This document shows positions 12,066-42,503 of a stretch of DNA of 64,000 nt, one piece after another. The notes beneath the pieces were generated by a model. That model was not told where the DNA came from, did not search any database, and saw nothing but the letters and a program-made list of their open reading frames with translations. The first letter of the stretch is position 1, and each line of letters starts with the position of its first letter. The position numbers and the translations under genes are program-made. Source of the DNA: Thermodesulfobacteriota bacterium (GTDB lineage Bacteria; Desulfobacterota; Desulfobulbia; Desulfobulbales; JBFMBH01); contig JBFMBH010000004.1 in the NCBI GenBank assembly GCA_040755095.1, positions 12,968-76,967 on the forward strand, read 5' to 3'.

Positions 12066-12142
12066 TGGTCGGGACGAGAGGATTTGAACCTCCGACTCCC
12101 TGAACCCCATTCAGGTGCGCTACCAGACTGCGCTACGTCCCG
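12066..12142 (-). tRNA. tRNA-Pro (anticodon GGG)
   Basis: The minus strand reads CGGGACGTAGCGCAGTCTGGTAGCGCACCTGAATGGGGTTCAGGGAGTCGGAGGTTCAAATCCTCTCGTCCCGACCA. It folds as a cloverleaf with anticodon loop AUGGGGU and an encoded CCA. Confidence 0.93.
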
Positions 12143-12204
12143 ACCCCATGCCCCAAAAAGGCTCAATGGTTACCATGAATAGCCGCCTCGGTCAAGGAGA
12201 AGAC

Positions 12205-12534
12205 TCACCGCTCCTCCTCCAGCAGCCGGCAGATCGCCACCAGCTCCCCCTTGATGGCGGCCAGGATATCCGAGCGCTGACTGCGGCCCCCCTTGCGGGC
12301 CTGGGCCAGGGCCTTTCTGGCGCCAGGGATGGTATATCCCTCCTCGTAGAGGAGCTCTTTGATCCTGAGGAAATTCTCCACATCCGCCCGGCGGTACAGC
12401 CGCTGCTTGGAGGCCACGCGGTTTGGTCGGATGACCGCAAACTCCGATTCCCAATAGCGGAGGACATGCGCCGCGACACCGGTGAGAGAGGCCACCTCCC
12501 CCATTCGGAAGTACTGCTTGTCAGGGATGGCCAT
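12205..12534 (-). CDS. MerR-family transcriptional regulator
   Basis: [32 protein letters not shown]...RLYRRADV is a MerR helix-turn-helix. An alternative start lies at 12573. The gene sits downstream of ihfA, as in many deltaproteobacteria. Confidence 0.8.
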
Positions 12535-12607
12535 GGCCTGAGTCTCTGCCGGGGCCTTCCGTGCGTCGGTCACGGCCGCGTCCTCTCCCCCGCCCAGGGG
12601 CCTTGCC

Positions 12608-12910
12608 TCAACCTCCGCCCTGGCCGTTGATCCGCTGCCGTAGCTTCTTGCTGGGCCGGAAGCTGACCACCCGGCGGGGGGTGATGGCCATGGGCACCCC
12701 GGTCCGAGGATTACGGCCGAGCCTGGCCGCCTTGTCCCGGATCAGGAAGGTGCCGAACTGGACAAGCTTCACCGATTCGCCGGCCAAAAGGGTCTCCCGC
12801 AGGCACAAGAAGACGTCATCCACCAGCTCTCCTGCCACCCGCAGCGAAAAACCCAGTTGCTCGTGGATGGCCCGCGCCAGCTCCTTTCGGGTCAGACTCG
12901 GCTTCCTCAC
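12608..12910 (-). CDS. ihfA: integration host factor subunit alpha
   Basis: 100 aa. [10 protein letters not shown]...[47 protein letters not shown] is the HU/IHF fold signature. The GTG start overlaps the pheT stop (GTGA). Confidence 0.9.
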
Positions 12911-15336: not shown

Positions 15337-15400
15337 GCCGTTGCCAGGGGGGGCCACGCCACCAAGGAGGTCCTGGACGCACCCCGGTGGCTGGCCTCGT

Positions 15401-16453
15401 TCAGAATTGGGTCAGGAAGCGCAGGTCGTTTTCGTAGAAAAGCCTGATGTCATCGATGCCGTACCGGAGCATGGCAATCCGCTCGATCCCCAGGCCGAAG
15501 GCCAAGCCACTCACTTCCTCCGGATCGTAGCCTACCATCCGGAAGACCTCCGGATCGATCAGGCCGGCGCCCAGGATTTCCAGCCAGCCCGTCGTCTTGC
15601 ACACCCGACAGCCTTTGCCGCCGCAGATGACGCAAGCGATGTCCACCTCAACGGACGGCTCCGTGAAGGGGAAGAAACTAGGCCGAAAGCGCAAGGCGAT
15701 GTCCGGGGCGAACATGCGCTGGCAGAAAAGCGAGAGGAGTCCCTTGAGGTCCCCGAAGGAGACTCGGCGGTCCACCAGGAATCCTTCCACCTGATGGAAC
15801 ATGGGGGTATGGGTGATGTCGGAGTCGCAGCGGTAGACCTTGCCCGGCGCGATCATCCTCAACGGGGGCCGACGCGCCTGCATGGCCCGGATCTGCATGG
15901 GGGAGGTGTGGGTGCGCAGGAGCACCCCCTCCCCCAGGTAGAAGGTGTCGTGCATGTCCCGGGCCGGGTGGTGGGGCGGAATATTGAGGGCCTCGAAGTT
16001 GTAGAAATCCAGCTCGACGTCCGGTCCCTCGGCCACCGAAAAACCCAGATCGGTGAAAATGGAGCACACCTCCTCCAGGACCTGGGACACCGGATGGCGC
16101 CGTCCCAACGGCATGCCCCGCCCGGGCAAGGAGCGATCCAGCAGCGGCCCTGTCGATACCGGCGCGGGGGCGGTGCTGGCCATGGTCAGCCGCTCGGCCA
16201 GCAGCCCTTCCAGCTCCGCCTTGATCGTATTGGCCAATTGCCCCAGGCGAGGCCGTTCGGCGGCGGGCGCCTTGCCCAGCTCCCGAAGAGCGGCGGTCAG
16301 AAGGCCCTTGCGGCCCAGGAAACGGATCCGCGCCTCCTCCACGGCCTCCGGCCCCGTGGCTGCAGCGATGGCCTCCCGGGCTTGGATCCGCAAAGCAGCC
16401 AGACCCGCCTCCAGGTCCGAAGGTCCGGCCGGGACAGTGATCTTGGGGCTCAC
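15401..16453 (-). CDS. pheS: phenylalanine--tRNA ligase alpha subunit
   Basis: The C-terminal catalytic core carries FNFEALNIPPHHPARDMHDTFY and FRPSFFPFTEPS. The GTG at 16453 was chosen because the longer ORF would overlap rplT; the exact start is uncertain. Confidence 0.85.
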   Translation of the reverse strand: MSPKITVPAGPSDLEAGLAALRIQAREAIAAATGPEAVEEARIRFLGRKGLLTAALRELGKAPAAERPRLGQLANTIKAELEGLLAERLTMASTAPAPVSTGPLLDRSLPGRGMPLGRRHPVSQVLEEVCSIFTDLGFSVAEGPDVELDFYNFEALNIPPHHPARDMHDTFYLGEGVLLRTHTSPMQIRAMQARRPPLRMIAPGKVYRCDSDITHTPMFHQVEGFLVDRRVSFGDLKGLLSLFCQRMFAPDIALRFRPSFFPFTEPSVEVDIACVICGGKGCRVCKTTGWLEILGAGLIDPEVFRMVGYDPEEVSGLAFGLGIERIAMLRYGIDDIRLFYENDLRFLTQF

Positions 16454-16464
16454 GACAGGTCGGT

Positions 16465-16824
16465 TCAGGAGGCGAAGCTTTGGGAGGCCAACTGGGCCAG
16501 TTGGCCGAAGGAGGCCGGATCCACCAGGGCCAAGTGGGCCAGAACCTTGCGGTCCAGCTCGACATTGGCCTTCTTGAGCCCGCCCATGAACCGGCTGTAG
16601 GAAAGACCATGCAGGGCTGCTCCGGCGCCGATCCGGACGATCCACAGCCGGCGGAAATCCCGCTTGCGCTGCCGTCGATCCCGGTACGCATACACCAGGG
16701 CCCGATCCACCGTCTCGGTGGCGGTCCGGTACAAACGGCTGCGGCCGCCCCGGTAGCCCTTGGCCAGCTTCAGCACCTTGTTGCGTCTTTGGCGGGCTTT
16801 GAAGCCCCGCTTGACTCGTGGCAT
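16465..16824 (-). CDS. rplT: 50S ribosomal protein L20
   Basis: [33 protein letters not shown]... is a canonical L20 sequence. Confidence 0.97.
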
Positions 16825-16840
16825 GAGTGCACCCCTTTTC

Positions 16841-17038
16841 TCAGACGTACGGCAGAAGCCGCTTGAGGCCTCGACGGTTGGCGTCGTCCACCACCTCGGC
16901 CTTGCGCAGCCCGCGCTTGCGCTTGGTGGTCTTCTTGGTGAGGATGTGGCTGTGGTTGGCCTTGCTGGCCATCATCTGGCCGCCACCGGTAGGCCGGAAC
17001 CTCTTGGCAGCGCCGCGGTTGGTCTTCATCTTCGGCAT
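16841..17038 (-). CDS. rpmI: 50S ribosomal protein L35
   Basis: [20 protein letters not shown]... is a canonical L35 sequence of 65 aa. Confidence 0.95.
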
Positions 17039-17093
17039 GGATCATCACTCCTGTCGGACCGTGTCCCCAGGGGACGGGGACGACCGGCGGTAT

Positions 17094-17639
17094 TTAGTGC
17101 TTGGGGCCCAGGAACATGGCCATCTGCCGGCCCTCCATCTTCGGTGGCTGCACCACCACCCCGACGTCGGCAATGGCCTCCCCGACTTTGGTGAGGAGCT
17201 GCATCCCGTACTGATCGGCGTAGGCGATCTCCCGGCCCCGGAAGCGCAAGGTCACCTTGACCTTGTTCTTCTGCTCCAGAAACTTGCGGATGTTACGGAT
17301 CTTGAAGGCCAGATCGTGCTCCTCGGTCTTGGGCCGGAACTTGATCTCCTTGACCTCCACCACCGTCTGCTTCTTCTTGGCCTCCTGAGCCTTCTTGCTC
17401 TGCTCGAACCGGTACTTGCCGTGATCCATGATCCGGCAGACCGGCGGTGTGGCAGCGGCAGCGATCTCCACCAGATCCAGCCCCTCCTCCTCGGCCAGAG
17501 CCAAGGCCTGCCGGCTGGAGACCACCCCGATCTGTTTGCCATCGGAGCCGATCAGACGGACCTCCGGAGCGTTGATCATATGGTTGACCCGGACCCTGAC
17601 CTCCTGCGTTGGCCTCTGCGGCAGCTTCTTACCTTTGAT
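17094..17639 (-). CDS. infC: translation initiation factor IF-3, probable AUC start
   Basis: The ATG-delimited ORF (to 17579) lacks the conserved N-terminus. Twenty in-frame codons upstream encode IKGKKLPQRPTQEVRVRVNH, which parallels E. coli MKGGKRVQTARPNRING. The ATC at 17639 is preceded by AGGAGG (6-nt spacing), and an in-frame TAG lies two codons upstream. Confidence 0.85.
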   Translation of the reverse strand: MKGKKLPQRPTQEVRVRVNHMINAPEVRLIGSDGKQIGVVSSRQALALAEEEGLDLVEIAAAATPPVCRIMDHGKYRFEQSKKAQEAKKKQTVVEVKEIKFRPKTEEHDLAFKIRNIRKFLEQKNKVKVTLRFRGREIAYADQYGMQLLTKVGEAIADVGVVVQPPKMEGRQMAMFLGPKH

Positions 17640-17733
17640 ACCCTACCTCCTGTAACGACCGAATGATCCCCAACCACCGGCGCCAATGCGCCAGCCGCTC
17701 CGATACCTAAAGCCCCCAGGCGCAACGACCGCC

Positions 17734-19665
17734 CTAGAAGCCCCGGGCGCGGCGGCTCTCCTCCCCCACCAGCTCCAGGAAGGCGGCAGGGGTCATGGCC
17801 GGCAGGTTCTGGCCGTCCCGCAGCCGCACGGTCAAGGTGCCGTCAGCCTTCTCCTTGTCGCCGATCACCACCATGTAGGGCACCTTGCCCAACTGGGCCT
17901 CCCGGATTTTGTAGCCGAGCTTCTCGTTGCGCAGATCCAGCTCCACCCGGCAGCCGGCCAGCTGCAGCTGGCGATGCACGGCCTGGGCATAGTCCGCCTG
18001 CTCGTCGGTCACGGTGAGGAGCCGCGCTTGCACCGGGGCCAGCCAGACCGGAAAGGCGCCAGCATAGTGCTCGATGAGCACGCCGAAAAAACGCTCCAGG
18101 GAGCCCATCAAGGCCCGGTGCACCATGATCGGCCGGTGCTCCTGGCCATCCTCACCCGTGTAGCCGATATCAAAGCGCTCGGGCAGGTTGAAGTCCACCT
18201 GAATGGTCGAGCACTGCCAAGCGCGCCCCAGAACGTCCTTGATCTTGATGTCGATCTTGGGGCCGTAGAACACCCCTTCACCGGGGTCGATGGCATACGC
18301 CATACCCTTTTTCTCCAGGGCCAAGCGCAGAGCGTCGGTGGCCTGCTGCCAGTGCTCGTCGCTGCCCACGTACTTCTCGGGCCGGGTGGACAGGTAGATG
18401 TCGTACTGGTCAAAACCGAAGGTGGACAGCACCTGGAGGTTGAGGTCCAGGATGTTGAAAATCTCGTCCTCCAACTGGTCCGGCCGGCAGAAGATGTGGG
18501 CGTCGTCCTGGGTGAAGCCCCGCACCCGCATGAGGCCGTGCAGCACCCCGGTGCGCTCGTAACGGTAGACCGTGCCCAGCTCGCACCAGCGGATCGGCAG
18601 CTCCCGGTAGCTGCGCCGCCGTACCTTGTAGATGGCGATATGGAAGGGGCAGTTCATGGGCTTGAGCTGGTAGGGCACCTCATCGATGGCCATCGGCGCG
18701 TACATGTTCTCGCTGTAGAAGTCGAGATGGCCGCTGCGCCGCCACAGGTCCAGGCGGGCGATATGGGGTGTGTAGAGCAGCTCGTAGCCGTGCCGGTTGT
18801 GCATCTCCTTCCAGTGGTCTTCGATCAGCCGGCGCACCAGGGCGCCTTTGGGCTGCCAGAGGATGAGCCCCGGGCCCACGCCATCCTGGATGGCGAACAG
18901 CTCCAGATCCTTGCCCAACCGGCGGTGATCCCGGCGCTTGGCCTCCTCCAGGGCTGCCAGATGGGCCTTCAGGGCCTTCTCCTCGAAGAAGGCAGTGCCA
19001 TAGAGGCGCTGCAGCATGGGCCGCGTCTCGTCGCCGCGCCAGTAAGCCCCAGCCACCTGCGTCAGCTTGAAGGCCCGGATCCAGCCGCTGTGGGGAATAT
19101 GCGGCCCCCGGCACAGGTCCAGGAAGCTGCCCTGACGGTAGACCGAGACGATCGGCTCGGTCAGCTCCTCCAGCAGCTCCACCTTGTACGGCTCATCAAG
19201 CTCCCGGAAGAGGGCGATGGCCGCGGCACGATCCATCTCCTCCCGGACAAAGGGCAGCGCCTGGGCAATGAGCTCCCGCATCCGAGCCTCAATGGCCTCG
19301 AAATCCTCGGGCGTAAACGGCTCGGCGCGGTCGAAATCGTAATAGAAGCCGTTGTCGATGGCTGGCCCGATCGCCACCTTTACCCCGGGCCCGAACAGCT
19401 CCCGCACCGCGGCCGCCATGATATGGGCGGTGCTGTGGCGGAGGATCGCCAGGGACTCCGGGGCGTCCTCGGCAAGAGACGTCAGGACCGTGTCCACCGC
19501 CAGCGGTCGGCTCAGGTCCAGAAGCTGGCCGTCGGCAGTGCGCGCTGCCAGGGCTCTTTTGGCCTGCTTCTTGGACAGCAGCTCGGCCAGGGCGCCCGCC
19601 ACGGTGGTGCCGGCATCGACCTCTTTGGCCTGACCGTCCGGCAGCGATACAGTGATCACGCTCAT
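17734..19665 (-). CDS. thrS: threonine--tRNA ligase
   Basis: 643 aa. It has a TGS domain N-terminus (MSVITVSLPDGQAKEV), a class II core and an anticodon-binding domain. Confidence 0.96.
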   Translation of the reverse strand: MSVITVSLPDGQAKEVDAGTTVAGALAELLSKKQAKRALAARTADGQLLDLSRPLAVDTVLTSLAEDAPESLAILRHSTAHIMAAAVRELFGPGVKVAIGPAIDNGFYYDFDRAEPFTPEDFEAIEARMRELIAQALPFVREEMDRAAAIALFRELDEPYKVELLEELTEPIVSVYRQGSFLDLCRGPHIPHSGWIRAFKLTQVAGAYWRGDETRPMLQRLYGTAFFEEKALKAHLAALEEAKRRDHRRLGKDLELFAIQDGVGPGLILWQPKGALVRRLIEDHWKEMHNRHGYELLYTPHIARLDLWRRSGHLDFYSENMYAPMAIDEVPYQLKPMNCPFHIAIYKVRRRSYRELPIRWCELGTVYRYERTGVLHGLMRVRGFTQDDAHIFCRPDQLEDEIFNILDLNLQVLSTFGFDQYDIYLSTRPEKYVGSDEHWQQATDALRLALEKKGMAYAIDPGEGVFYGPKIDIKIKDVLGRAWQCSTIQVDFNLPERFDIGYTGEDGQEHRPIMVHRALMGSLERFFGVLIEHYAGAFPVWLAPVQARLLTVTDEQADYAQAVHRQLQLAGCRVELDLRNEKLGYKIREAQLGKVPYMVVIGDKEKADGTLTVRLRDGQNLPAMTPAAFLELVGEESRRARGF

Positions 19666-19767
19666 GCCCGCCCCACAGGAAAAAGGAAGCTCCGCAACGA
19701 CGGCGGATCGTTGCGAAGCCGAGCAGCCAGCACAAACACCGATGTCAACAACCGACGGAAACAGGAA

Positions 19768-19842
19768 TGGTAGGCGCGGGCGGGATTGAACCGCCGACTT
19801 CTACCGCGTCAAGGTAGCGCTCTCCCACTGAGCTACGCGCCT
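19768..19842 (-). tRNA. tRNA-Val (anticodon GAC)
   Basis: The minus strand reads AGGCGCGTAGCTCAGTGGGAGAGCGCTACCTTGACGCGGTAGAAGTCGGCGGTTCAATCCCGCCCGCGCCTACCA, 75 nt, with anticodon loop UUGACGC. Confidence 0.93.
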
Positions 19843-19966
19843 GTTCTGTTTGGTCCAACGCTTCCTGGCAAGGTCACGGCGGGACCCCGTTCAAATACCA
19901 GCAAACGGTGGCGAAGTCAAGGGGAATATGGCCCGGGACGCCGCTCTGACGGCCGGCCGCCGGCCG

Positions 19967-20617
19967 TCAGCCCCCGTTTGCTCCCCCCTGCCCCTGGCCG
20001 TCCACCGGACCCGGCGCACACGGCCGGCGGCCCTCGATGGCCCGGGCCAGGGTCACCTCGTCAGCATACTTGATGTCCATGCCCATGGGAATACCGAAGG
20101 CCAACCGGGAGATCCGAGCCGCTCCTCCGCGCAGGCGCTGGATGAGGAGGGCTGCCGTCGCCTCCCCCGGCACCGTGGAACTGGTGGCAATCAGCACCTC
20201 CCGGATCTGCGGCTGCCGGGCCCGGGCCACGAGCAGATCCACCTTGAGCTCCTCGGACCCGATGCCGTCCACGGGGGACAGCACGCCGTGGAGGACATGG
20301 TACAGGCCCCGGTAGGTACCGGACTTCTCCACCGCGGCCAGATCGCTGGCCTCCTCCACCACGCAGACCAGGCCCCGGTCCCGGGACGGATCGGCGCAGA
20401 CGGGGCAGGGATCGGTCGCCGAAAAGGCGCAGCAAACCGAACAGAGGCGGATGGCACCATGCAGCTCCGCCAGGCTCCGGGCCAGGGCCTGCGCCTCCGC
20501 CGCCGGCCGGCGCAGCAGGAACAGAGCCAGCCGGGTGGCGGTCTTCCTGCCGATGCCCGGCAGGCGGTGCAGGTCTTCGATGAGCCGGACCAGGGCCGCC
20601 GGCATGGTCTCCCGCAT
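19967..20617 (-). CDS. recR: recombination protein RecR
   Basis: LIEDLHRLPGIGRKTATRLALFLL is a helix-hairpin-helix. A CxxC...CxxC zinc finger (CSVCCAFSATDPCPVC) and a Toprim region follow. The start was chosen downstream of the ybaB stop. Confidence 0.9.
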   Translation of the reverse strand: MRETMPAALVRLIEDLHRLPGIGRKTATRLALFLLRRPAAEAQALARSLAELHGAIRLCSVCCAFSATDPCPVCADPSRDRGLVCVVEEASDLAAVEKSGTYRGLYHVLHGVLSPVDGIGSEELKVDLLVARARQPQIREVLIATSSTVPGEATAALLIQRLRGGAARISRLAFGIPMGMDIKYADEVTLARAIEGRRPCAPGPVDGQGQGGANGG

Positions 20618-20627
20618 ATGGCAGCGC

Positions 20628-20936
20628 CTAGAAGAGGCCCGGAATGCGCATCCCGCCGGTGAGCTTGCCCATCTCTTCCTGGGCCATGGCCGCGGCCTTG
20701 GAATGGGCATCGTTCACCGCGGCGATCACCAGATCCTGGAGCAGGGTCGGATCGGCGGGGTCGATCACCGTCGGCTCGATGGTCAGGGCGACCAGCTCAT
20801 GGCGGCCGTTCACGGTGGCCTGCACCATGCCGCCGCCTACGGACGAAGTCACCCGCCGGGAGCCCAGGTCCTCTTGCATCTCGGCGATCCTTTTCTGAAA
20901 CTGCTGGGCCTGTTTGAACAGCTGATCCATGTTCAT
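20628..20936 (-). CDS. ybaB: YbaB/EbfC nucleoid-associated protein
   Basis: MNMDQLFKQAQQFQKRIAEMQEDL...GGGMVQATVNG...MRIPGLF is typical of YbaB. It sits between dnaX and recR. Confidence 0.92.
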   Translation of the reverse strand: MNMDQLFKQAQQFQKRIAEMQEDLGSRRVTSSVGGGMVQATVNGRHELVALTIEPTVIDPADPTLLQDLVIAAVNDAHSKAAAMAQEEMGKLTGGMRIPGLF

Positions 20937-20955
20937 GGTGTCTTTCCTCCGGCCC

Positions 20956-22695
20956 TCAGGGCTTTCTGGCGTCGCTGGTGCGGATCTCGGTGATGGCGCC
21001 GCCGAAGATCTCCACCGCGGCTTGCACCAGCGGCTCGGCGGCCAGGGCCCGGCGCTCTGCGCCGGGGTCGGGACCACTGGTGGCCGCGGCCGGCGCTGAC
21101 TCCGGGATACCGGCCGGGGTGTCGATGACGACCCGCAGCTCCCGCTGAAAAAAATCAGCCAGATAGCCGGCGATCAGGCGTACGTTCTCCTGGTCCTGGA
21201 GCACCGCACCGTCGCTGGCCTGCCCGAAGCGTACCACAAGACTGCCCCCTTCCTCCCGGACCCCGTCGGCCAGACGCAGGGAGTGGGCCAGCCATGGCTT
21301 GCGGCCCTTGACATAGCCGATGAACTCGTCCCAGCCCTGGCGCACCGAGCGGTTGCCCGCTGGCCCCGTCACCGGGAGCGGCTCGGCGGCAGCCGGCGGC
21401 CGGCGGGGCTCGGCGGGGGCCGGCGCGGGGGCATTGGCCGCCGGTTGGCCCGGTCCCCCGGTTGGCACCGGCCGGGGCAGGCCCGGGGCCCCGGCCGGCT
21501 GGGCCAACAGCGCCGCCGGCTCCACCGGCCAACCCAGGCCGGCCGGCAGAGTCCCTGCAGCCAGCAGGCGATCCAGCCTGTCCAGCACCTCGTCCAGGGG
21601 CACGAGCTGGCCGGCCTGCATGGCCCGGATGAGTGCGGTCTCCAGCACCAGCCGCGGCTGGGCCGCCCGCCCCATGGCCTCCACCCCCTGGACCAGGTGG
21701 TGAAAGTGCTGTCCCAACGCCTCCACGGCGTGACCGGCTGCCAAGTCCCTGGCCGCCGCCAGCTCCTCCTCCGGCAGATCAATGAGCTCGGCTGGCTTCT
21801 GGGCCAGCCGGCACACGAGGAGAGCCCGGAAGTATTCCACCAGATCCTGGGCGAAGCGGCGCACGTCGCCGCCGATCTGACTCACCCGCGCCAGCACCCC
21901 GAGGCAGCGTCCCAGGTCGGCGGCCAGAATGGCTCGGGCCATCTCCTCAATGAGCCGGCGGTCGACCAGGCCCAGCACCTCCAGGACGTCGGTATCCGCC
22001 ACCGACTCGCCGGCAAAGGAAAAGATCTGATCCAGCAGGGACAGGCCGTCCCGCACCGAGCCCCCGGCCTCCCGAGCCACCAGGCCCAGGGCCCGATCCG
22101 AGATCGCTACCCCCTCCCCGTCGGCCACCCGGCGGAAGAAGGCTGCCAGCTCGGCCATCGACACCCTCTTGAGCTCATGGCGCTGGCACCGGGAGAGGAT
22201 GGTCACAGGCACCCGATGCAGCTCGGTGGTGGCGAACAGGAAGTAGACGTGGGCCGGCGGCTCCTCCAGGGTCTTCAACAGGGCGTTGAAGGCCTCGGTG
22301 GTGAGCATGTGCACCTCGTCGATGATCACCACCCGGAAGCGGCACTGGGTCGGGAAGTAGCGGATGTTCTCCTTGAGGTCCCGGATCTCCTGGATACCCC
22401 GGTTGGAGGCGCCGTCGATCTCCTGCACGTCCAGGGCCGCGCCGGCGGTGATCTCCTGGCAGGGCGGACAGCGGTTGCAGGGGGTTGGGGTGGGACCTTC
22501 GACGCAGTTGAGGGCCTTGGCCATGATCCGGGCCAGGGTGGTCTTGCCCACCCCCCGCACCCCGGAGAAGATGAGGGCATGGGGCACCCGGTCCCGCCGC
22601 AGGGCATTCTCCAGGGTGGCGACCACCGACCGCTGGCCGATGACATCGGCAAAGGTCTGCGGCCGCATCTTGCGGGCCAGCACCAGGTAGCTCAT
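20956..22695 (-). CDS. dnaX: DNA polymerase III subunits gamma/tau
   Basis: MSYLVLARKMRPQTFADVIGQ...GVRGVGKTT...VIIIDEVHML. The upstream extension of the ORF to 22911 reads through the SRP RNA and a tRNA and is rejected. Confidence 0.93.
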   Translation of the reverse strand: MSYLVLARKMRPQTFADVIGQRSVVATLENALRRDRVPHALIFSGVRGVGKTTLARIMAKALNCVEGPTPTPCNRCPPCQEITAGAALDVQEIDGASNRGIQEIRDLKENIRYFPTQCRFRVVIIDEVHMLTTEAFNALLKTLEEPPAHVYFLFATTELHRVPVTILSRCQRHELKRVSMAELAAFFRRVADGEGVAISDRALGLVAREAGGSVRDGLSLLDQIFSFAGESVADTDVLEVLGLVDRRLIEEMARAILAADLGRCLGVLARVSQIGGDVRRFAQDLVEYFRALLVCRLAQKPAELIDLPEEELAAARDLAAGHAVEALGQHFHHLVQGVEAMGRAAQPRLVLETALIRAMQAGQLVPLDEVLDRLDRLLAAGTLPAGLGWPVEPAALLAQPAGAPGLPRPVPTGGPGQPAANAPAPAPAEPRRPPAAAEPLPVTGPAGNRSVRQGWDEFIGYVKGRKPWLAHSLRLADGVREEGGSLVVRFGQASDGAVLQDQENVRLIAGYLADFFQRELRVVIDTPAGIPESAPAAATSGPDPGAERRALAAEPLVQAAVEIFGGAITEIRTSDARKP

Positions 22696-22740
22696 GGCGC
22701 GCTCGCCGGACCAGACAGCATCAGCTGGCCCCGAAAAAAA

Positions 22741-22843
22741 TGATAGCCAGGCACCCTGCGGCACACAAAGGATCTTGCTACCGTTGCTTCCTCCCGGACC
22801 TGGCGGGGTTCGCAAGACTTTGTTGCGCAGGACCCGGCTATCA
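22741..22843 (-). ncRNA. ffs: signal recognition particle RNA (small/4.5S type)
   Basis: The minus strand forms a long hairpin: 5' GATAGCCGGGTCCTGCG pairs with 3' CGCAGGGTGCCTGGCTATC. It contains the conserved CCAGGUCCGGGAGGAAGCAAC domain IV motif and is followed by a U7 run. This is the classic position upstream of dnaX. Ends are approximate, within about 5 nt. Confidence 0.85.
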
Positions 22844-22861
22844 AACCGAAGTCCTTTCTTC

Positions 22862-22954
<93 letters not shown>

Positions 22955-23044
22955 TGATGGCAAACGGTTGTCGAGGGATATCTCCTCCCGGCGGGCCGCC
23001 ATACCCCAACGGGCATTTCAGGCTTCCGGCTGACGACATGGCTT

Positions 23045-23113
<69 letters not shown>

Positions 23114-23137
<24 letters not shown>

Positions 23138-29078: not shown

Positions 29079-29804
29079 ATGCAGGACACCGGCGTCGCCA
29101 CCGTCCGCTACGAATTCCACTTCCCGGACAGTCCGGTGAAGGTCTTCCCCCTGGACATCGACATGGAGCGGCTGGTCCTCCTTGCCAAGGCCGGGGGGGA
29201 GCCGCCGCCCTGGACCGCCCTCACCGACCACCAGTGCCCCTGCTGTCCCCTGCCACCGGACCCGGAGGCGATCTGCCCCCTGGCCGCCAGCATTGCCCGC
29301 ATCGTCGACGCCTTCGCGGACACCCCCTCCTTCGATCAGGTTCATGTCCGCTGCATCACCGCCGACCGCACCTATGCCAAGGACACCTCCGTCCAGGACG
29401 GCCTGTACTCCATCCTCGGCCTGGTGATGGCCACCAGCGGCTGCCCGGTCATGCAGCCCTTCAAGCCCATGGCCCGCTTCCACCTGCCGTTCTCCACGGT
29501 GGAGGAGACCATGGTCCGGGCCATCTCCTTCTACCTCTTAGGCCAGTACTTCCGGTTCAAGGAAGGTCATCCCCCGGACCTCGGCCTCAAGGAGCTGGAC
29601 GCTCATTACAGCCGGGTGCAGCAGATCAACGAGTCCATCCTGCAACGGATCCGGGCCATCTCCTCCCGGGACGCCGACCGCAACGCCATGACCATCCTTC
29701 ACTCCCTGGCGCAGATGCTCTCCATGGAGATCGACGCCAACCTGAGCAGCCTGGAGCCCTTCTTCACCCCCGCCGACCCGGCCGGACCACCAGGCCCGGC
29801 CTGA
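29079..29804 (+). CDS. hypothetical cytoplasmic protein (CPCCP motif)
   Basis: 241-aa ORF with ATG at 29079 and coding-like composition. It contains HQCPCCPL and ICPLAASI. I recognise no family. Confidence 0.6.
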   Translation: MQDTGVATVRYEFHFPDSPVKVFPLDIDMERLVLLAKAGGEPPPWTALTDHQCPCCPLPPDPEAICPLAASIARIVDAFADTPSFDQVHVRCITADRTYAKDTSVQDGLYSILGLVMATSGCPVMQPFKPMARFHLPFSTVEETMVRAISFYLLGQYFRFKEGHPPDLGLKELDAHYSRVQQINESILQRIRAISSRDADRNAMTILHSLAQMLSMEIDANLSSLEPFFTPADPAGPPGPA

Positions 29805-29897
29805 AGGAGACAACGACCGCCGCCCCGAGCCGCTGCACCCGTTGCCGGCGAGACCGAAGCGGAGCGCTACCCGCCGGAGGTGTCGTGGCACGCACCC

Positions 29898-29939
29898 AAA
29901 AAAAGGCAGGGCCGCCCGGAGATGAGCGGCCCTGCCTTT
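29898..29939 (-). terminator. rho-independent terminator (possibly bidirectional)
   Basis: The stem GGCAGGGCCGC/GCGGCCCTGCC has a 10-nt loop, with A7 on one side and T3 on the other. On the minus strand it is followed by U7, downstream of the PEP-CTERM gene at 29967. Confidence 0.8.
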
Positions 29940-29966
29940 GGGGGCAGAGGGGAAACGAGCCCCGTG

Positions 29967-30560
29967 CTATCTCTGTCGCCGCCGGCAGGCCAGGCCGGCA
30001 AGGCCAGAGCCCAGAAGGAGGATGGAGGCAGGCGCGGGCACCGGGGTCCCGGCATCCGAGGAGACTACCAGCTCCGTCACGCGCCAGGATTCATCGTTGA
30101 TGCCCTGAAATCCAGAGCCATAGCCATAGAAGGAGAGGCTCAACGTGGTCGCCGTGTGGGCAAAGGTGAAGCCGTTGTTGTAGTTCTGGAAGTAGCGATC
30201 GATTGGCCCCCAGCTGTTGATGCCGTTGTAGTTGCCGATTCCATCGGCGGTATCGGTGTTGGACTCGGCCCCGCCGAAGTTGTCAAATGTCCAGCCCTGA
30301 GCCGCCCCGTCCACACTGAAACCGAAGGCGTCTGGTGACCAGCCACCATCCGAGCCATCCCAGCTGTCCATGATGAAGAGGTCAAAATTGACGGTGACCG
30401 TTGAATGTGGCGCCAGGCCACTCAGATTGATGGTCACGGCATCTGTGGTATGGTCGCCCAGGTTGGGATTGGAGTAAATAACCGTCGATGCTTGTGCCAG
30501 GTTGGTCATGCCGAGCATCAAGAATCCGGTTGCCAATGCGGCCCGCAGCAGTCTCTTCAT
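29967..30560 (-). CDS. PEP-CTERM sorting-domain secreted protein (unrelated mature domain)
   Basis: The signal peptide is MKRLLRAALATGFLMLGMTNLAQA. The C-terminus is TPVPAPASILLLGSGLAGLACRRRQR. The ATG at 30560 follows GGAGCGAGACCACG. Confidence 0.85.
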   Translation of the reverse strand: MKRLLRAALATGFLMLGMTNLAQASTVIYSNPNLGDHTTDAVTINLSGLAPHSTVTVNFDLFIMDSWDGSDGGWSPDAFGFSVDGAAQGWTFDNFGGAESNTDTADGIGNYNGINSWGPIDRYFQNYNNGFTFAHTATTLSLSFYGYGSGFQGINDESWRVTELVVSSDAGTPVPAPASILLLGSGLAGLACRRRQR

Positions 30561-30684
30561 CGTGGTCTCGCTCCTTCGGTTGCCTTGTTCTGCCAAGTGT
30601 GAGAGTCCCCGCCCTGGGGGGGAGGCGGCCGATTAGCATCTTTGGCCGCCACGACGGCTCAGGGTGCCGCCTGCGCAGAAGGCT

Positions 30685-30701
30685 ATGCATAAAGGGCGCC
30701 A
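30685..30701 (-). promoter_or_regulatory. sigma-54-type -24/-12 promoter (TGGCGC-N6-ATGCA)
   Basis: The minus strand reads TGGCGCCCTTTATGCAT with GG/GC spacing as in the consensus. It lies about 125 nt upstream of the start codon at 30560. Confidence 0.55.
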
Positions 30702-30796
30702 CCCTGCCGAGCGGGAGGTCTTCTTTCAACATCCAGCAATTTCAACCAGTTGGTCGGATGGTTGCCGGCTGCCCGACAAGGAGTCCATTCGGCAAT

Positions 30797-30831
30797 CCGG
30801 AATAGCCGTTCGGAAACGCGGAAGCCGGAAT
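30797..30831 (-). promoter_or_regulatory. candidate enhancer (UAS): CGGAA-repeat element
   Basis: The plus strand reads CCGGAATAGCCGTTCGGAAACGCGGAAGCCGGAAT. Its first 20 nt match 11895-11914 at 18/20 positions. It is centred about 112 bp upstream of the -24 element. Confidence 0.5.
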
Positions 30832-31175
30832 CCCCTTCCCCACCCGTCCTGCCCCCCCGGCATCGCATGGGCATATCTCTCCTTGGCGTGTTCCATGGGG
30901 GCTGCGGCCGAGGCACCGTTGTCCTGGCCGGGATGTCCATCGTATGCCTCCCGGAAGCCGCGCCGGTCAAGCCAGCTGCTGGCTGCGGATCATTGCCAAG
31001 AGCGGTCCGCTGGGGCAGATGAAGGGGCGGTTGCCGCATGCCGGAAAGCCACCCCTCCGGAGCTTGCGGCCGGCAGCGGATCCGCCAACCCTGCACAGGG
31101 GCACTGCACGAGCCATGACCGGGTCGTCTGCGCCTCTCCTCGTGCCTTGGCCGGCGAGCGGAGGCCTCGGCGCAT

Positions 31176-31209
31176 AAAAAAAGACCCCAGGGGGCAACCC
31201 CCCGGGGCC
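31176..31209 (-). terminator. rho-independent terminator of ppaC
   Basis: The minus strand reads GGCCCCGGGGGG-ttg-CCCCCTGGGGTC followed by U7, 36 nt after the ppaC stop. Confidence 0.8.
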
Positions 31210-31244
31210 TTGGACCGTGTGGCCGAACAGCGGCGGAAAGGATC

Positions 31245-32165
31245 TCAGCAGCCGAAGGCCTTCTGCAGCGGCGGCACGGTCTGCTTCTTGCGGCTCATCA
31301 TGCCGGGCAGCCACATGGACTCGCCCTGGAGCTTGCCACCAAAGGCCTTCTCGATGAGGGCCGGATCCTCGGAGACCACCAGAAGATCGGTGCCTTCCTT
31401 GACCACGTCGGTGAGCATGAACAGGACCGAGTGGCGGCCGTCGGCCTTGAGACCCTGGAGGGCCTTGACCAAGTCGGAGCGGACCCCAGCGGCCTGGTCG
31501 ATGGTCGCCAGCTCCAACTGGCCGATGCCCACCTTCTTGCCGTTCATGTCGAAGTCCTTGAAGTCGCGGTTCAAGAGGTCGTTGATCGGCACGCCGTCGA
31601 TGGAGGACTTGGCCTTGAGCATCTCCATGAACACCGCGTCCCGGTCGGTGATGCCGGCGATCTTGGCGAGCTCGGCCACCGCCGCCTTGTCCTCGTCGGT
31701 GCAGGTGGGGGACTTGAAGTTGACGGTATCGCTCAGGATGGCGCACAGCATGATGCCGGCCATCTGCTTGGAGATGGCGACGTTGGCGCTCTTGTACATC
31801 TCGGTGATGACGGTGCAGGTGCAGCCCACCGGCTTGGCGTAGAAGAAAATGGGGTTGTTGGTGGTGACGTCGCCGATCTTGTGATGATCCACGATCTCGA
31901 CGACGTCATTGGCGCTCATGTTGGCCGGGCCCTGGGCCAGGTCGCTGAAATCCACCAGAATGATCTTCTTGCCGGCGGCGTCGGTCATGATCTCCGGGGT
32001 CGCGGCCCCGAACTTGCTGAGCACCACCTGGGCCTCGGGATTGAGCGGTCCCTGCATGACCGGCACGGCATCCATGCCCTGGGCCTTGCGCAGGTTGGCC
32101 AGGGCGATCGCCGCCGCCACAGAATCGGTATCCGGACTCTTGTGCCCCACCACATAGACAGACAT
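31245..32165 (-). CDS. ppaC: manganese-dependent inorganic pyrophosphatase (family II, DHH)
   Basis: MSVYVVGHKSPDTDSVAAAIA...VDHHKIGD...DGRHSVLFMLTD shows the DHH/DHHA2 motifs. An RBS AAGGAGGAG precedes the ATG at 32165. Confidence 0.92.
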   Translation of the reverse strand: MSVYVVGHKSPDTDSVAAAIALANLRKAQGMDAVPVMQGPLNPEAQVVLSKFGAATPEIMTDAAGKKIILVDFSDLAQGPANMSANDVVEIVDHHKIGDVTTNNPIFFYAKPVGCTCTVITEMYKSANVAISKQMAGIMLCAILSDTVNFKSPTCTDEDKAAVAELAKIAGITDRDAVFMEMLKAKSSIDGVPINDLLNRDFKDFDMNGKKVGIGQLELATIDQAAGVRSDLVKALQGLKADGRHSVLFMLTDVVKEGTDLLVVSEDPALIEKAFGGKLQGESMWLPGMMSRKKQTVPPLQKAFGC

Positions 32166-33302: not shown

Positions 33303-36014
33303 TCAGGGCGCGGTGGCGATGGAGTCGATCTCGATGGCGCAGCCGCTGGTGACCGTGGGATCCAGGCGCAGGCTGCGGATCTCCCGGCCGGCCCACTCGC
33401 CATGGGCCGCCGTGTCGATCAGGTAGTCGTGGAACTGGCCGTCGGCGGTGACCGCGAAGTTAATCTTCCTCAGCTCCGACTCGGACAGAGCAGTGCTGTG
33501 GGTCCAGAAGAGCTGGCCGGTGGTGGTGGCCGCCGCGCTGCAGCTGGTTTTCATGCGCACCGCCAGCAGGGGCACCTCGTTGCCGGCAAAGGACATGCCG
33601 CTGCGTCGCAGGTAAGGATCGGTGCCGGTGCTGGAGGTGGCCAGCGCGCCACCCGACACCACCAGGGAGGTCAGGTGGGTGTTCTTCACCCAGCCCTCGG
33701 TGTCACCGGCCGCCTCGAACTGGAAGCTCACCGGGCTCGCCGCGGTGGTGACCGCCACCACGTTGCTGCTGGCGGATTCCCCCTGACCGTTGACCGCCTT
33801 GACCCGGAGCCAGTAGCTGGTGGCCCGGGCAAGCCCGGAGACGGTGCTGGTCACGAAGTTGCTGCCATTGTCCGCTGCCACGACCCAGGTGCTGCCATCG
33901 GTGGACCGCTCGACGACGAAGCCGTCCTCGTCGTCGGCATGGTCTGTCCACCGGAGGTCGACCCGGTTGTGGAAGACAGCGGACGCCACCAGGCCGCTGG
34001 GGGCGGCGGGCGGCGCCGCGGCCGGGGCAGGCGGCGGTACCGTCTGGATGAAATCGATGGCCATGGCGGCGCCGGCCACGTCCGTGGGATCCAGGCGCAG
34101 GCTGCGGATGTCCTTGCCGGCCCACTGGGGATGGCCGGACAGATCCAGGGCGTACAGATGGAACTGGCCGTCGACGATGGGGGTGAAGGCCAGGGCCTTG
34201 GACATCGATTCTGCGGTGTCGCTGGTGGTGGTCCAAAGAACATGGCCGACGCTGCCAGCGGAGACCTTCATCTACGGGGTATTGGGCTCCAGGCCCTGGT
34301 CGACAAAGCTGCTGGAGGTGCCGCCCATAGCGTGGTTGATGGCCGGCGCAGTGCCGATCTGCACCCAGCCGCCGGTGCCGGTGAGGGATCTTTCCACCGT
34401 GAAGCCCTCTTCGTAGTCCAGCCGGCCATGGGGCAGGTGACGCCAGGAGAAGGCGAGCCCATTGACCGAGGTGCTGGACATGGTCAGGGCCGTGGGCGCC
34501 GGCGGCGGCAGCTCGGCCGGCGGCAGCTCGTTGCGCCAATCGATGGGATTGCTGAACCGCCAGGAGATGTGGCAGGCGTTGCTGGAGCAGGTGCCACCGC
34601 CGACCTTGGGCTGATAAACAAAGCTCAATGGCTGCCAGGCCTGGTGGGCGAAGAACTGGGGGGCGGCCACCACGTCCATCCGGCCATTGACATGGATCGA
34701 CCGGTCCCGGATCGAGATGGCGCCGGCAGCTGGATCCTTCTGCACACTGGTGGCATGGCACAGCTCGCAGGTGCAGCCCCGGGAGATGTGAGTCCAGTGG
34801 GCGTCGCCGGCCGGCGGCCGGCCGTGGCAGTTGTTGCAGGTGTCGCTGTCCCCCTGGGGATCGGAAGCGGAGCCATCCCAGGCCAGTGAGCGGCCGGTGA
34901 CCCGGCGGCCGTCCACACTGCTCTTGCCGTCGCTGTGGCAGTAGACGTTGTCACAGGTCAGGGCATCGTCCTTGACCACCGCGGTGCCGTTGGTGGCCTG
35001 TAGTCGTAGCCGGTGACCGCCGGGGACACCGCGGTCTGGCCGTGGAAGATGGTATTTTCTCCAGCGCGGCCGAAGGTGGCAAAGCCGATCTGGATCCTGG
35101 AGTCATCGTAGACCGGGCTGGCCGGCATCCCGCCGCTATGGCAGTTGTCGCAGGCAAAACCGTAGCCGGTGGCCTGGTCGACATGGATCCGGTGGGCGCC
35201 GGCGGACGCCGAGCCGGTGGGCGACGGGATGTCCACCAGGCCGTCCGGGCTGCCCGGGGCGTCGGTTACCGGCGGGTAGCCGTGGCAGGCCAGGCAGCTG
35301 GGCGCAAAGCCGGTGGCGTGGTCATGGCAGTCGGTGCAGGTGCGGCCGCTGAAATGGTCGGCCAGCATGGCGTTGGCCCGCCAGTGGTCGGTGGCGGTGT
35401 GGCAGACCTGGCAGACCCCGTCCGGGCTGGGGTCGGCCGCCGGATCGCCACCATCGTCGGCAAAGCCGTTCGTGCCCTCACGGTCGAAGAGCTTCACCGG
35501 CTTCAGGCTGTGGTCCGCCGGGTTCTCCATCTCCTCCTTGACATACTGGCCGTAGAGGATGGCGAAGGCGTCGCCGCTGGCCACCTGGCCGGCATAGGCC
35601 GGGATGGCGGCGATATTGCCGCTCACTGTGATGGAGGCGGCGTCGGCGGCAAGGATCTCGAAGCTCACCTCCGGGGCCGCCAGGCTGGGCAGAAGGATGA
35701 GACCGCGGCCCGGTCCGGTCTTGTGGCTCCAACGGCCAGGATCCGCCCAGGCGGCCCGTGCGGTAGACATTGGCGTCGTGGCACTCCTGGCAGGAGGCAG
35801 CCGGCAGCACCGTCCGGTCGTGGCGGGCCTCATGGCTTGCGCCGTGACAGGCGGCGCAGTTGGCGGCCTGCACATGGCTGGCCTGGTGACAATCCGTGCA
35901 CTCCACCGCCAGGGCGTAAGCCAGGCCGGGCGCCCCGGCGAGCCATCCCAGAAGACCGCCCTGCACCAGGACCGCCACCACGGACAAGATGCCGCTCCGC
36001 CTTCCCTGTCGCAT
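33303..36014 (-). pseudogene. large secreted multihaem cytochrome c / FN3-domain protein, disrupted by 2 frameshifts and 1 in-frame TAG
   Basis: An RBS GGGGGAAGG precedes the ATG at 36014, and the signal peptide is MRQGRRSGILSVVAVLVQGGLLGWLAGAPGLAYA. Coding sense moves from the frame of ORF 35478..36128 to the frame of 34958..36073 near 35740-35765, then to the frame of 34272..34979 near 34990-35005. A TAG lies at 34272-34274. The gene carries 9 CxxCH and 2 CxxxxCH motifs, two FN3-like domains and a duplicated C-terminal domain. Confidence 0.7.
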
Positions 36015-36274
36015 CCGCCTTCCCCCTTTCCCGGATGGATGAGCTGCCGCTCGCGGCCACCGGCCCCGAACACGCCGCCGGGGCGTACCGCATCGTTCTC
36101 TTGTCCAAAAAGCGGCCGGCGGGCTCAATTGGCGGAACGCTCATTTCGGATTAAGCGGAGGACGGGTGACCGGTGGGAAGGTTGCGCGGGGGAGCGACCG
36201 GAGCTCGCGCCCAGCCGGCATGGCGGGGTACCTCCTGGCCGGGGCCGGCGGCCGCCGTGCCCTGTTGCCTGGGG

Positions 36275-40067: not shown

Positions 40068-40475
40068 ATGCATCCTTTTCCCAGCACCCACAGCGTCACC
40101 ATCGGCTACATCCTCTGGATCTTCGGCTTCACCGGCTCGCACCGCTTCTACTACGGCAGGCCCATCTCCGGTACGGTCTGGTTTTTTACCTTGGGCCTTC
40201 TGGGCATCGGCTGGCTGGTGGACCTGTTCCTTATTCCCGCCATGGACCGGCAGGCGGACCTGCGCTTTGTGCCCGGGCCCATCGACTACACGGTGGCCTG
40301 GATTCTCCTCACCTTTCTGGGCCTGTTCGGGGCGCACCGGATCTACATCGGCAAATGGCCAAGCGGTATCCTGTATCTTCTCACCTGTGGCCTGTTCGGG
40401 ATCGGGGTCATCTATGACTTCTGGACCCTCAACAGCCAGATCAGCCTCAAGAACAGCCAAGGGAGCCTGCGATGA
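40068..40475 (+). CDS. TM2 domain-containing membrane protein
   Basis: 135 aa with two repeats of the GxHRFYxGxxxxG TM2 pattern (GSHRFYYGRPISG and GAHRIYIGKWPSG) in hydrophobic segments. Confidence 0.8.
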   Translation: MHPFPSTHSVTIGYILWIFGFTGSHRFYYGRPISGTVWFFTLGLLGIGWLVDLFLIPAMDRQADLRFVPGPIDYTVAWILLTFLGLFGAHRIYIGKWPSGILYLLTCGLFGIGVIYDFWTLNSQISLKNSQGSLR

Positions 40476-42503
40476 TGTCAGAGAGCCTGCCGCCGTCCCC
40501 TGAGAAAGCTGTCCATGCCGCCGGCCGCGACCTCATGGACAGCCTGCGCGCCGAGGACATCCTGGCCGCCATGGGCGATCCGGTAAGCATCCAGGATACC
40601 AGCCTGGTCATCCGGTACCAGAACCCCGCCCACCAGGCCCTGGTCGGCGATCACCGGGGAGAGCCCTGCTTTGTCGCGTACGAGGGACAGGATCACCCCT
40701 GCGACCGCTGCCCGCTTCTGGCCGCCTTCCGGGATGGACAAACCCATCTCTGCGAGCGCACAGGCCGCGGGTCCCAGGGCGAGGCCGTCATCGAGATCAC
40801 CGCCTCGCCCCTCCGGGACAGCCAGGGACGCATCGTGGCGGGCATCGAGGTCTGCCGGGACATCACAGTCCGGCGCCGCGAAGAACAGGCCTTGCGCCAG
40901 GCCCACAGCCAGGCGGTCGAGGACCGGCGCCGTCTGGGCGCTGTCCTGGAGCACAGCCCAGACACCGTGGCCATCCTGGATGCCAGCGGCCGGATCGTCT
41001 ACCTCAATGACAGCGGCCGCCGGCTCCTCGGTCTGGACACCGTGGAATCAGGACTGGGACGCCCCTTTGCCGACCTGATCCCGGCCAGTGACCACTCCCT
41101 GTTCACCAACTCCATCCTGCCGATCCTGCACCGCCGTGGTGAGTACCGGGGAGAGCTCCGGATCCAGCATCTGGCCAGCAGCCGGCCAGTGCCGGTGGAG
41201 ATGACCGCTTTCCGGTTGGACGAAGCAGGCTCGGCCGCTCTCAGCATCCGGGAGATCACCGAACGGCTCCGCCAGCAGGTGGCCCTGCAGGAGGCCAGAA
41301 GCAAGGCGGACGCGGCCCTCGCGGCCAAGAGCCAGTTCCTGGCCAACATCAGCCACGAGATCCGAACGCCCTTGAACGGCATCGTTGGCATGCTGGCCAT
41401 CGCCCTGGGCAGCGACCTGCCGGCAGACATCCGCCGCCACCTGGACATGGCCCGGGACTCGGCGGACCGCCTGGTGGGCATCGTGGGCGACGTCCTGGAC
41501 TTCTCCCGGATCGAGGCCCGGCAGCTGCGGCTGGCAGACCAGCCCTTCCAGCTGCGGGCCCTTCTGGAAAGGACGATGCCGATCTTCGCCGTGCAGGCCC
41601 GGGCCAAGGGGCTGGACCTGTCCTGGCAGATCGACAGCGACGTGCCCGACCTGCTGCAGGGGGATGGCGAGCGCCTGCGTCAGATCCTGGTCAACCTCCT
41701 GGCCAACGCCGTCAAGTTCACCAAGACCGGTTCCGTCGCCGTCCGGATCAGCACCGAGATGCTGGACCTCGAGAAGGTGCTCCTGCATGTGACGGTGCAG
41801 GATACCGGTGTCGGCATCCCCCGCAAGGAGCTGGATGGGATCTTCGAGCCTTTCAGCCAGGCGGACGGCTCCCACACCCGGCGCTACGGCGGCGCCGGTC
41901 TGGGCCTCGCCATCGCCTCCCGGCTGGTGGCCCTCATGGAGGGACACATCTGGGTGGAGAGCGTCCCGGCCAAGGGCTCCACCTTCCACTTCACCGCGCT
42001 CTTTCCATATCAGCCCAGCGTACAAGCCGCCCCCCCCCCCCAGCGCCACGCCTGTTGCTCCCCGGGAAGCCGGCGCCAGCCCGCCAGCCGCCACAGCCAC
42101 CGTACCGGCACCGCCCCCCCGGCAGGCCCGCATCCTCTTGGCCGAGGACGACGAGGTCAATCAGGCCCTGGCGGTCACCGTTCTGGAGCAGGCCGGCTGG
42201 CTGGTCACCGCGGTGGCCAACGGCCAGGAGGCGCTGGCCGCCCTGGAGGCCCAGGGCTTCGATCTGGTGCTCATGGATCTGCAGATGCCGGTCATGGACG
42301 GGCTGGCGGCGGTACACCGCCTGCGGCAGCGGGAGAAGGTCGCCGGCGGGCATCTGCCGGTGGTGGCCATGACCGCCCACGCCATGAAGGGGGACCGGGA
42401 GCGCTGCCTGGCCGCCGGCATGGACGACTACCTCGCCAAGCCCATCGGCATCGCCGACCTGGTGGCCATGGTCCGCCGCTACCTGCCGCCGCAGGCCCAG
42501 TAG
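40472..42503 (+). CDS. hybrid sensor histidine kinase/response regulator (2 PAS + HisKA + HATPase + REC), frame broken at a C12 tract
   Basis: The H-box is FLANISHEIRTPLNGIVGM and the G-boxes are GGAGLGLAI. After 42030-42041 the receiver domain (ILLAEDDEVNQ...DLVLMDLQMPVMDG...LAKPI) continues in another frame, that of ORF 41808..42503. Eleven Cs would give a single ~676-aa ORF. The ATG overlaps the TM2 gene stop (ATGA). Confidence 0.8.
42030..42041 (+). repeat. homopolymeric C12 tract
   Basis: Twelve consecutive C residues were counted directly in ...caagccg-CCCCCCCCCCCC-agcgcc. The tract lies in the Pro-rich linker between the kinase core and the receiver domain. Confidence 0.95.

Follow-up and report, generated by a model that had tools for sequence, protein, structure and literature searches.

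How does a gene for one large protein come to lie in pieces across reading frames, and can what is left of it still make a working product? The question is raised by a cytochrome gene on the minus strand (36014 to 33303) of a 64,000-nt stretch of DNA from a Thermodesulfobacteriota bacterium (NCBI assembly GCA_040755095.1, contig JBFMBH010000004.1, positions 12,968 to 76,967). We call the whole of this stretch the window, and all coordinates below are positions in it. A first-pass annotation, made from the letters and their open reading frames (ORFs), had described the gene as a multihaem cytochrome with two compensating frameshifts and had favoured gene decay. Our analysis supports this view. 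The locus is probably the recent pseudogene of one large, secreted 11-haem c-type cytochrome gene, as indicated by homologues that are single proteins colinear with the pieces, by a third lesion in the gene, and by the lack of a signal peptide on every piece but the first.

Four fragments make up the cytochrome locus

ORF reading of the minus strand divided the locus into four stop-to-stop pieces, A, B, C and D. Fragment A (35778–36014, frame 0) begins with an ATG start codon at 36014–36012, downstream of the Shine–Dalgarno-like sequence GGGGGAAGG (36018–36026), and encodes a Sec-type signal peptide (MRQGRRSG...APGLAYA) followed by an N-terminal three-haem module. The ribosome-binding site, start codon and signal peptide reported by the first-pass annotation are thus borne out by direct reading, including the signal-peptide-like N-terminus. 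Read on in frame 0, the ORF of fragment A continues into out-of-frame junk and ends at a stop codon at 35480–35478. Fragment B (35000–35755, frame +1) contains the remainder of a beta domain (AAWADPGRWSHKTGPGRGLIL...) and four haem motifs, and its frame closes at the stop codon 34960–34958.

Fragment C (34275–34997) returns to frame 0. Both CxxxxCH sites are among its four haem motifs, and after these come a linker rich in Pro and FN3 domain 1 (34505–34275), which is truncated at its conserved Tyr. Fragment D (33303–34271) lies in the same frame as C and opens with an ATG at 34271, immediately after a TAG codon. It holds the C-terminal half of domain copy 1 (34271–34038) and a Pro/Ala linker, then a complete FN3 domain 2 (34004–33744; fn3, PF00041, 33.1 bits, profile positions 2–83 of 84) and a complete, unnamed C-terminal domain of ~146 aa (33743–33306), after which the gene stops. 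Candidate start codons of the later fragments are ATG 35770 (B), GTG 34979 (C) and ATG 34271 (D); by sequence reading, the signal peptide is found on fragment A alone, and B, C and D lack one.

Eleven haem-binding motifs are distributed over the first three fragments. Fragment A has three (CTDCH 35900–35886, CAACH 35858–35844 and CQECH 35792–35778), fragment B four (CQVCH 35413–35399, CTDCH 35338–35324, CLACH 35296–35282 and CDNCH 35152–35138) and fragment C another four (CDNVYCH 34955–34935, CNNCH 34838–34824, CELCH 34769–34755 and CSSNACH 34589–34569). Two of the eleven are of the CX4CH type, and each forms a pair with a CXXCH motif in fragment C (CDNVYCH with CNNCH; CELCH with CSSNACH). The count of 11 given earlier holds: each motif was located, and in an alignment with 15 homologues (16 sequences) all 11 fall on invariant columns.

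Intact homologues are colinear across both frame changes

The stitched translation of the locus was searched against ~5.8 billion proteins, which yielded 80 homologues. The best of these are 36–48% identical to the query and are CxxxxCH/CxxCH domain proteins of ~700–1150 aa from metagenome-assembled genomes (MAGs) of Thermodesulfobacteriota, Desulfobulbaceae and Nitrospirota (Desulfobulbia and Thermodesulfovibrionia). The homologues are single uninterrupted ORFs. Both tblastn with 16 of them and a profile hidden Markov model (HMM) showed that they are colinear over fragments A, B and C, across both frame changes. By tblastn, residues 141–407 of homologue P0001 align at 35773–35021 in one frame and residues 401–561 at 35018–34536 in the other; P0011 matches frame A with residues 1–85 and frame B with residues 80–437. 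The HMM was built from 15 homologues, with the query left out. It matched frame 0 at 35915–35763 (profile positions 33–91), frame +1 at 35770–35015 (positions 120–363; 292 bits, E 1e-90) and frame 0 again at 35000–34527 (positions 369–525; 183 bits).

The GC content of third codon positions, which is independent of homology, changes frame at ~35770–35745 and at ~35020–35000. In the frames assigned to the fragments it amounts to 0.83 (A), 0.87 (B), 0.86 (C) and 0.89 (D). As tblastn, the homologue-only HMM and third-position GC agree, the two frame jumps are real and lie where the first-pass annotation had put them. It had also noted that neither falls in an obvious homopolymer, and a scan found no run of five or more identical bases and no slippery heptamer (X XXY YYZ) at either junction; nor did reading of the sequence reveal a site of the +1 shift type. 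The possibility that the three segments are normally separate genes, each with its own start, is not borne out either: homologues pass through both junctions as single polypeptides.

The nearest relatives of the window copy are uncharacterised 11-haem proteins (P0001–P0016, for example P0007 and P0009), which have the same 11 motifs, the beta domain and the signal peptide. They differ from it in being uninterrupted and in their tails, which are PKD-type or other. A tail of FN3 plus unnamed domain like that of the window copy occurs only in P0004, where tblastn places the full tail within one protein. The unnamed ~146-aa domain at 33743–33306 gave zero Pfam matches at E up to 10. It features the motif DGQFHxY...W.G..IRSLRLDP, is duplicated within the cytochrome gene and also forms the end of P0004.

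Three lesions interrupt the gene

Lesion 1 (35756–35777, minus strand) shifts the reading from frame 0 to frame +1. Profile positions 92–119 of the HMM remain unmatched here, though on the DNA the flanking matches touch each other or even overlap. The missing block is present in 15 of 15 homologues, with the consensus PLVxGxFxG.......TTFT.....V. In the AlphaFold2 model of P0007, it corresponds to the first beta-hairpin (strands E97–107 and E110–120; predicted local distance difference test, pLDDT, 76–91) of the beta domain between haems 3 and 4. Because 28 conserved profile positions have no DNA left, we regard lesion 1 as a deletion and not a point indel; a length of 3n+2, ~86 nt, fits the +1 frame change. 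The first frame change of the earlier description is therefore real, but it stems from a deletion of ~86 nt and not from a point or small indel.

Lesion 2 (34998–34999, minus strand) is a two-base remnant, AG, of a single codon that has lost one base, and it returns the reading to frame 0. At this site, 14 nt of DNA stand against five unmatched profile positions (364–368). The local sequence reads TAC GAC TAC AG GCC ACC, and restoring GAG gives YDYEATNGT, to be compared with the family consensus YxYEGTNGT.

Lesion 3 (34272–34274, minus strand) is an in-frame TAG that sits where the two sides of a ~90-codon deletion (~270 nt) meet. It was absent from the first-pass annotation, which took the frame to be open from the second shift (~35000) to 33303; this is not so, as the TAG at 34274–34272 closes it. 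The evidence for the deletion comes from the repetitive tail, which is built from two units in which an FN3 domain is followed by the unnamed ~146-aa domain. Unit 1 measures 159 aa, and unit 2, which is complete, 236 aa. The FN3 domain of unit 1 aligns with only the initial part of FN3 domain 2 and ends in GLEPNTP where FN3 domain 2 has GLARATSY, while the 79 residues past the TAG align to positions 158–236 of unit 2 (43% identity, E 3e-23). From the truncated FN3 domain of unit 1 and the alignment of the residues after the TAG to unit 2, we conclude that ~90 codons are missing. Lesion 3 removes the end of FN3 domain 1 together with the N-terminal half of copy 1 of the C-terminal domain. The TAG itself is best read as a junction codon, in which TA would be left from the Tyr codon of the FN3 domain and G from the codon for Arg in ..VRMK... 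Two FN3 domains and a duplicated C-terminal domain, as described earlier, are indeed present, but FN3 domain 1 and domain copy 1 are both truncated at the TAG.

The zero net frame change of the two shifts had been considered unusual. It is not: modulo 3, a frameshifting lesion can only be +1 or −1, about half of all pairs thus cancel, and we regard the cancellation as coincidence. It also rescues nothing, because frame A stops at 35480–35478, far ahead of the second shift, and beyond that shift lies the TAG at 34274.

A probable recent pseudogene and its product

These observations suggest the following course of events. The ancestor would have been a single gene, ~1,020 codons long, whose product was a secreted c-type cytochrome of the CxxxxCH/CxxCH kind with 11 haems. 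A deletion of ~86 nt (lesion 1) would have taken out the first hairpin of the beta domain and shifted the frame by +1, the loss of one base (lesion 2) would have restored frame 0, and an in-frame deletion of ~270 nt (lesion 3) would have created the TAG at its junction. Translation from ATG 36014 would now give 178 aa at most, comprising the signal peptide, three haem motifs and ~90 out-of-frame residues. The cytochrome c maturation (Ccm) system attaches haem outside the cytoplasm, and this attachment needs Sec export. Without a signal peptide, fragments B, C and D miss periplasmic haem attachment and hence cannot mature as c-type cytochromes. Since codon bias is uneroded in every fragment, the decay would be recent.

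The public annotation treats the pieces as separate proteins. NCBI lists fragment D as MEW6218226.1 (FN3 domain-containing protein), fragment C, from GTG 34979, as MEW6218227.1 (CxxxxCH/CxxCH domain-containing protein) and fragment B, from ATG 35770, as MEW6218228.1 (hypothetical protein AB1634_01680). The ORF of fragment A (36014–35478) is unannotated, and the locus bears no pseudogene flag. Neighbouring genes are MEW6218224.1 (pyrophosphatase) and MEW6218225.1 (MazG) on one side and, as the next gene on the other, MEW6218229.1 (hypothetical protein AB1634_01685, with a lipoprotein-like signal peptide). Ordinary bacterial pseudogenes that automatic annotation has split share the same pattern of multiple disabling lesions and fragments listed as separate coding sequences, and nothing notable sets the window copy apart from them. 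Counts of multihaem cytochromes or extracellular electron-transfer proteins based on the NCBI annotation would be wrong for the source organism.

Alternatives to gene decay

The analysis shows the lesions and the domain content, the colinear match to intact homologues and the clean surroundings, and we infer that the lesions are present in cells and not just in the assembly. Alternatively, the gene may be intact in the organism, and the lesions may be errors of metagenome assembly or consensus, such as misjoins between strain variants or paralogues, or polishing error. We consider this unlikely, yet it deserves to be taken seriously. The contig belongs to a MAG, and the fully kept codon bias of the fragments is compatible with an intact gene. 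In relatives, one genome has several paralogues of the family, and a single contig sometimes has two (L004/L008 and L003/L010), so that cross-paralogue misassembly is conceivable. The window also contains one other frameshift, at a run of 12 C (C12), which is maybe a sequencing error.

The make-up of the lesions argues against such an artefact. Three lesions of differing kinds lie within 2.7 kb, whereas the other genes checked are intact, bar the one with the C12 run. The base lost at lesion 2 is outside any homopolymer. Read-level error does not produce long deletions that end outside repeats, and two of the three lesions are of this sort; judged from unit 2, the deletion junctions are not within repeated sequence. 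A chimeric join would call for a second cytochrome gene, and no cytochrome paralogue was found elsewhere in the window. Assemblers that collapse strain bubbles would still output an existing haplotype.

A high general indel rate of the assembly was considered as a cause and rejected on account of the other checked genes, which are intact. Long ORFs of 600–890 aa in the window are undisturbed, and ten short genes, which might have been fragments, match Pfam domains nearly from end to end (MerR, HU/IHF, PheS, L20, L35, IF3, three PEP-CTERM and a deaminase). The neighbours of the locus are likewise intact, encoding a DsbC-like protein, DUF6901, MazG, an M48 peptidase and an RNase H-like protein. 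The earlier remark that all other genes are intact except the C12-interrupted kinase holds for those checked, and the C12 run was confirmed at 42030–42041. This run separates the frames of a hybrid histidine kinase gene (40472–42503, plus strand), the other frameshift of the window. PAS, HisKA and HATPase_c domains precede the run, and the receiver domain (ILLAEDDEVNQ...LMDLQMPVMDG...) lies in another frame that ends at 42503. The kinase is interrupted at a long homopolymer, which points to a sequencing error or, alternatively, to a phase-variable tract.

Several further points weigh against a decayed gene, or against what we propose that it encoded. The source is a MAG, and the uneroded codon bias is equally expected of an assembly artefact in an intact gene. 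The collections searched held no orthologue closer than 48% identity, and the sizes and end points of the deletions are estimated from distant homologues and the internal repeat. The 28-residue gap at lesion 1 could in principle be partly lineage-specific. As for the surface electron-transfer function discussed below, it has to our knowledge never been tested experimentally in the 11-haem family, and a search of the literature for the domain names returned surveys in which the domain is listed, but no functional work on the family.

Additional searches were directed at closer or independent copies of the locus. A scan of one genome per species gave at least 78 relative loci, with ~40% identity the best among the matches listed and no close orthologue among them. 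A wobble-tolerant DNA pattern for CQVCHTATDHW had 0 matches in metagenome contigs, and exact look-up of the MazG, pyrophosphatase, fragment D and P0081 proteins for an independent assembly recorded nothing. No syntenic orthologue was found: in the genomes with the nearest relatives of the pyrophosphatase (~80% identity, Desulfobulbia), MazG is followed by ribosomal protein genes, with no cytochrome at this position. A search of all protein representatives with fragment D was dominated by FN3 repeats of giant proteins, but it revealed that fragment D itself has been deposited as a protein.

It is very improbable that the fragments are functional, be it as separate genes or as one protein made through programmed +1/−1 frameshifts and stop read-through. 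Possible starts exist at ATG 35770, GTG 34979 and ATG 34271, and NCBI lists B, C and D as proteins. Every homologue, on the other hand, is one uninterrupted protein, and B, C and D come without a signal peptide. Programmed frameshifting was rejected, given that the junctions have no slippery heptamer or +1 shift site and that the homologues are not frameshifted; a reading of the TAG as a coding codon was rejected because ~90 residues are missing exactly there. Since a beta-hairpin, half a domain and the final strands of an FN3 domain are physically gone, any such recoding would still give a defective protein.

That the first 178 codons alone still work, as a small periplasmic three-haem cytochrome (fragment A to 35478) with the rest of the gene dead, is hardly credible: the start, Shine–Dalgarno-like sequence and signal peptide are intact, as are three CxxCH motifs, and there are weak matches to cytochrome c7/c3-type models, but two near-invariant His of the N-terminal module are missing, ~90 out-of-frame Arg/Pro-rich residues follow the haem motifs, Pfam and NCBIfam scores stay under their cut-offs, and the NCBI annotation pipeline did not call the ORF.

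The intact family and its likely function

By profile matches, the locus that we read as a pseudogene is a member of the CxxxxCH/CxxCH c-type cytochromes (TIGR01904 / PF09698), a family that is named but uncharacterised. Fragment C scored 36.3 bits against TIGR01904 (TIGR01904.2; cut-off 27) and 34.9 bits against PF09698 (GSu_C4xC__C2xCH; cut-off 21.7). With both cut-offs passed and the motif pair present twice, the motif type proposed by the first-pass annotation stands. Fragment B matched cytochrome c7 (PF14522) with 29.6 bits (cut-off 24.8). Fragment A had weak cytochrome c7/c3-type matches, under the cut-offs of the Pfam and NCBIfam models, and it is missing two near-invariant His of the homologues' N-terminal module ("SPH" and "TH" motifs). 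The absence of these His may be more decay or plain divergence.

The TIGR01904/PF09698 domain was first defined on Geobacter sulfurreducens proteins. Geobacter proteins are only 27–29% identical to the window copy, whose nearer relatives are in MAGs of Desulfobulbia and Thermodesulfovibrionia. While the window copy is broken, these relatives display a distinct 11-haem architecture, in which the beta domain separates haem 3 from haem 4 and the tail is Ig-like (PKD or FN3).

In the intact ancestor, the Sec signal peptide would have directed the protein to the periplasm, where the Ccm system would have attached 11 haems, three of them N-terminal and eight in a core that includes the two CX4CH sites. 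A beta-sandwich domain of ~100 residues would sit between haems 3 and 4, and the tail of two FN3 plus ~146-aa repeats would keep the haem chain at the cell surface or display it there. The intact protein was presumably secreted and probably surface-exposed, with a role in electron transfer. We base this on the FN3, PKD and Ig-like tails and on the location of P0009 among multihaem cytochromes.

The neighbourhood of P0009 (L082; JBMONP010000064.1, 1–22145) comprises at least seven multihaem cytochrome genes, of which one encodes 1308 aa, together with two genes for SurA-like peptidyl-prolyl isomerases (PPIases) and one for an NHL-repeat protein. This dense cluster, from a Thermodesulfobacteriota MAG, is a candidate island for extracellular electron transfer. 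Homologue P0013 is situated outside any such cluster. Whereas some homologues thus lie in clusters of multihaem cytochrome, NHL-repeat and PPIase genes, the window copy is solitary, between the MazG gene and the lipoprotein gene.

Comparison with known structures revealed no close counterpart. A family profile search of PDB sequences had no significant hit; the best were cytochrome c3 (E 3e-4) and OcwA (6i5b; E 0.06), with weak NrfA-type matches, and OmcS, OmcE and OmcZ were not among the matches at E up to 1. The MtrC/OmcA-type model PF22113 (domain II/IV) reached 18.3 bits, on fragment A only, against a cut-off of 30. In the AlphaFold2 model of P0007 the haem core has low confidence (mean pLDDT 63), and we used the beta-domain part only. 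Foldseek of this model against the PDB matched only the tail, with generic FN3, PKD and Ig hits, the haem core being poorly modelled. The OmcS, OmcE and OmcZ filaments, MtrC/OmcA and OcwA have in common with the window family the idea of a secreted multihaem chain that is assumed to move electrons outside the cell; in the PDB profile search they showed no significant sequence similarity to it.

A bolder interpretation is that the relatives are an unstudied family of surface electron conduits confined to Desulfobulbia and Thermodesulfovibrionia, and that the broken copy marks a lineage losing this capacity, or else that its 178-codon ORF is kept as a three-haem cytochrome; we hold this to be improbable. 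Such a conduit family may be characterised by 11 haems with two CX4CH sites among them, by a beta-sandwich inserted behind haem 3 and by exchangeable tails of Ig-like or adhesin-like type. For general biology the locus has little weight, as broken genes are common and the cytochrome domain family is already named, though uncharacterised. In Desulfobulbia and Thermodesulfovibrionia, the aligned homologues nevertheless outline a coherent family of 11-haem proteins that no solved structure represents, and which could merit structural or genetic study in an organism where it is intact.

Other features of the window

Four small secreted proteins with PEP-CTERM signals are encoded on the minus strand (9772–10116, 10273–10845, 11108–11662 and 29967–30596). 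Three of the four match Pfam PF07589, and the fourth was read by eye (...VPAPASILLLGSGLAGLACRRRQR). Their presence implies an exosortase system in the organism. The GC content falls to 0.59–0.63 at 29800–31250, compared with 0.68–0.72 in the surroundings. This stretch, upstream of the pyrophosphatase gene, contains one PEP-CTERM gene and ~650 nt without a convincing ORF (30600–31245).

A housekeeping block on the minus strand (12066–23137) includes pheT, pheS, rplT, rpmI, infC and probable thrS. The same block contains the RNA genes tRNA-Pro (12066–12142), tRNA-Val (19768–19842), signal recognition particle (SRP) RNA (22742–22839) and two tRNA-Ser (22863–22954 and 23045–23137), and all genes of the block appear intact.

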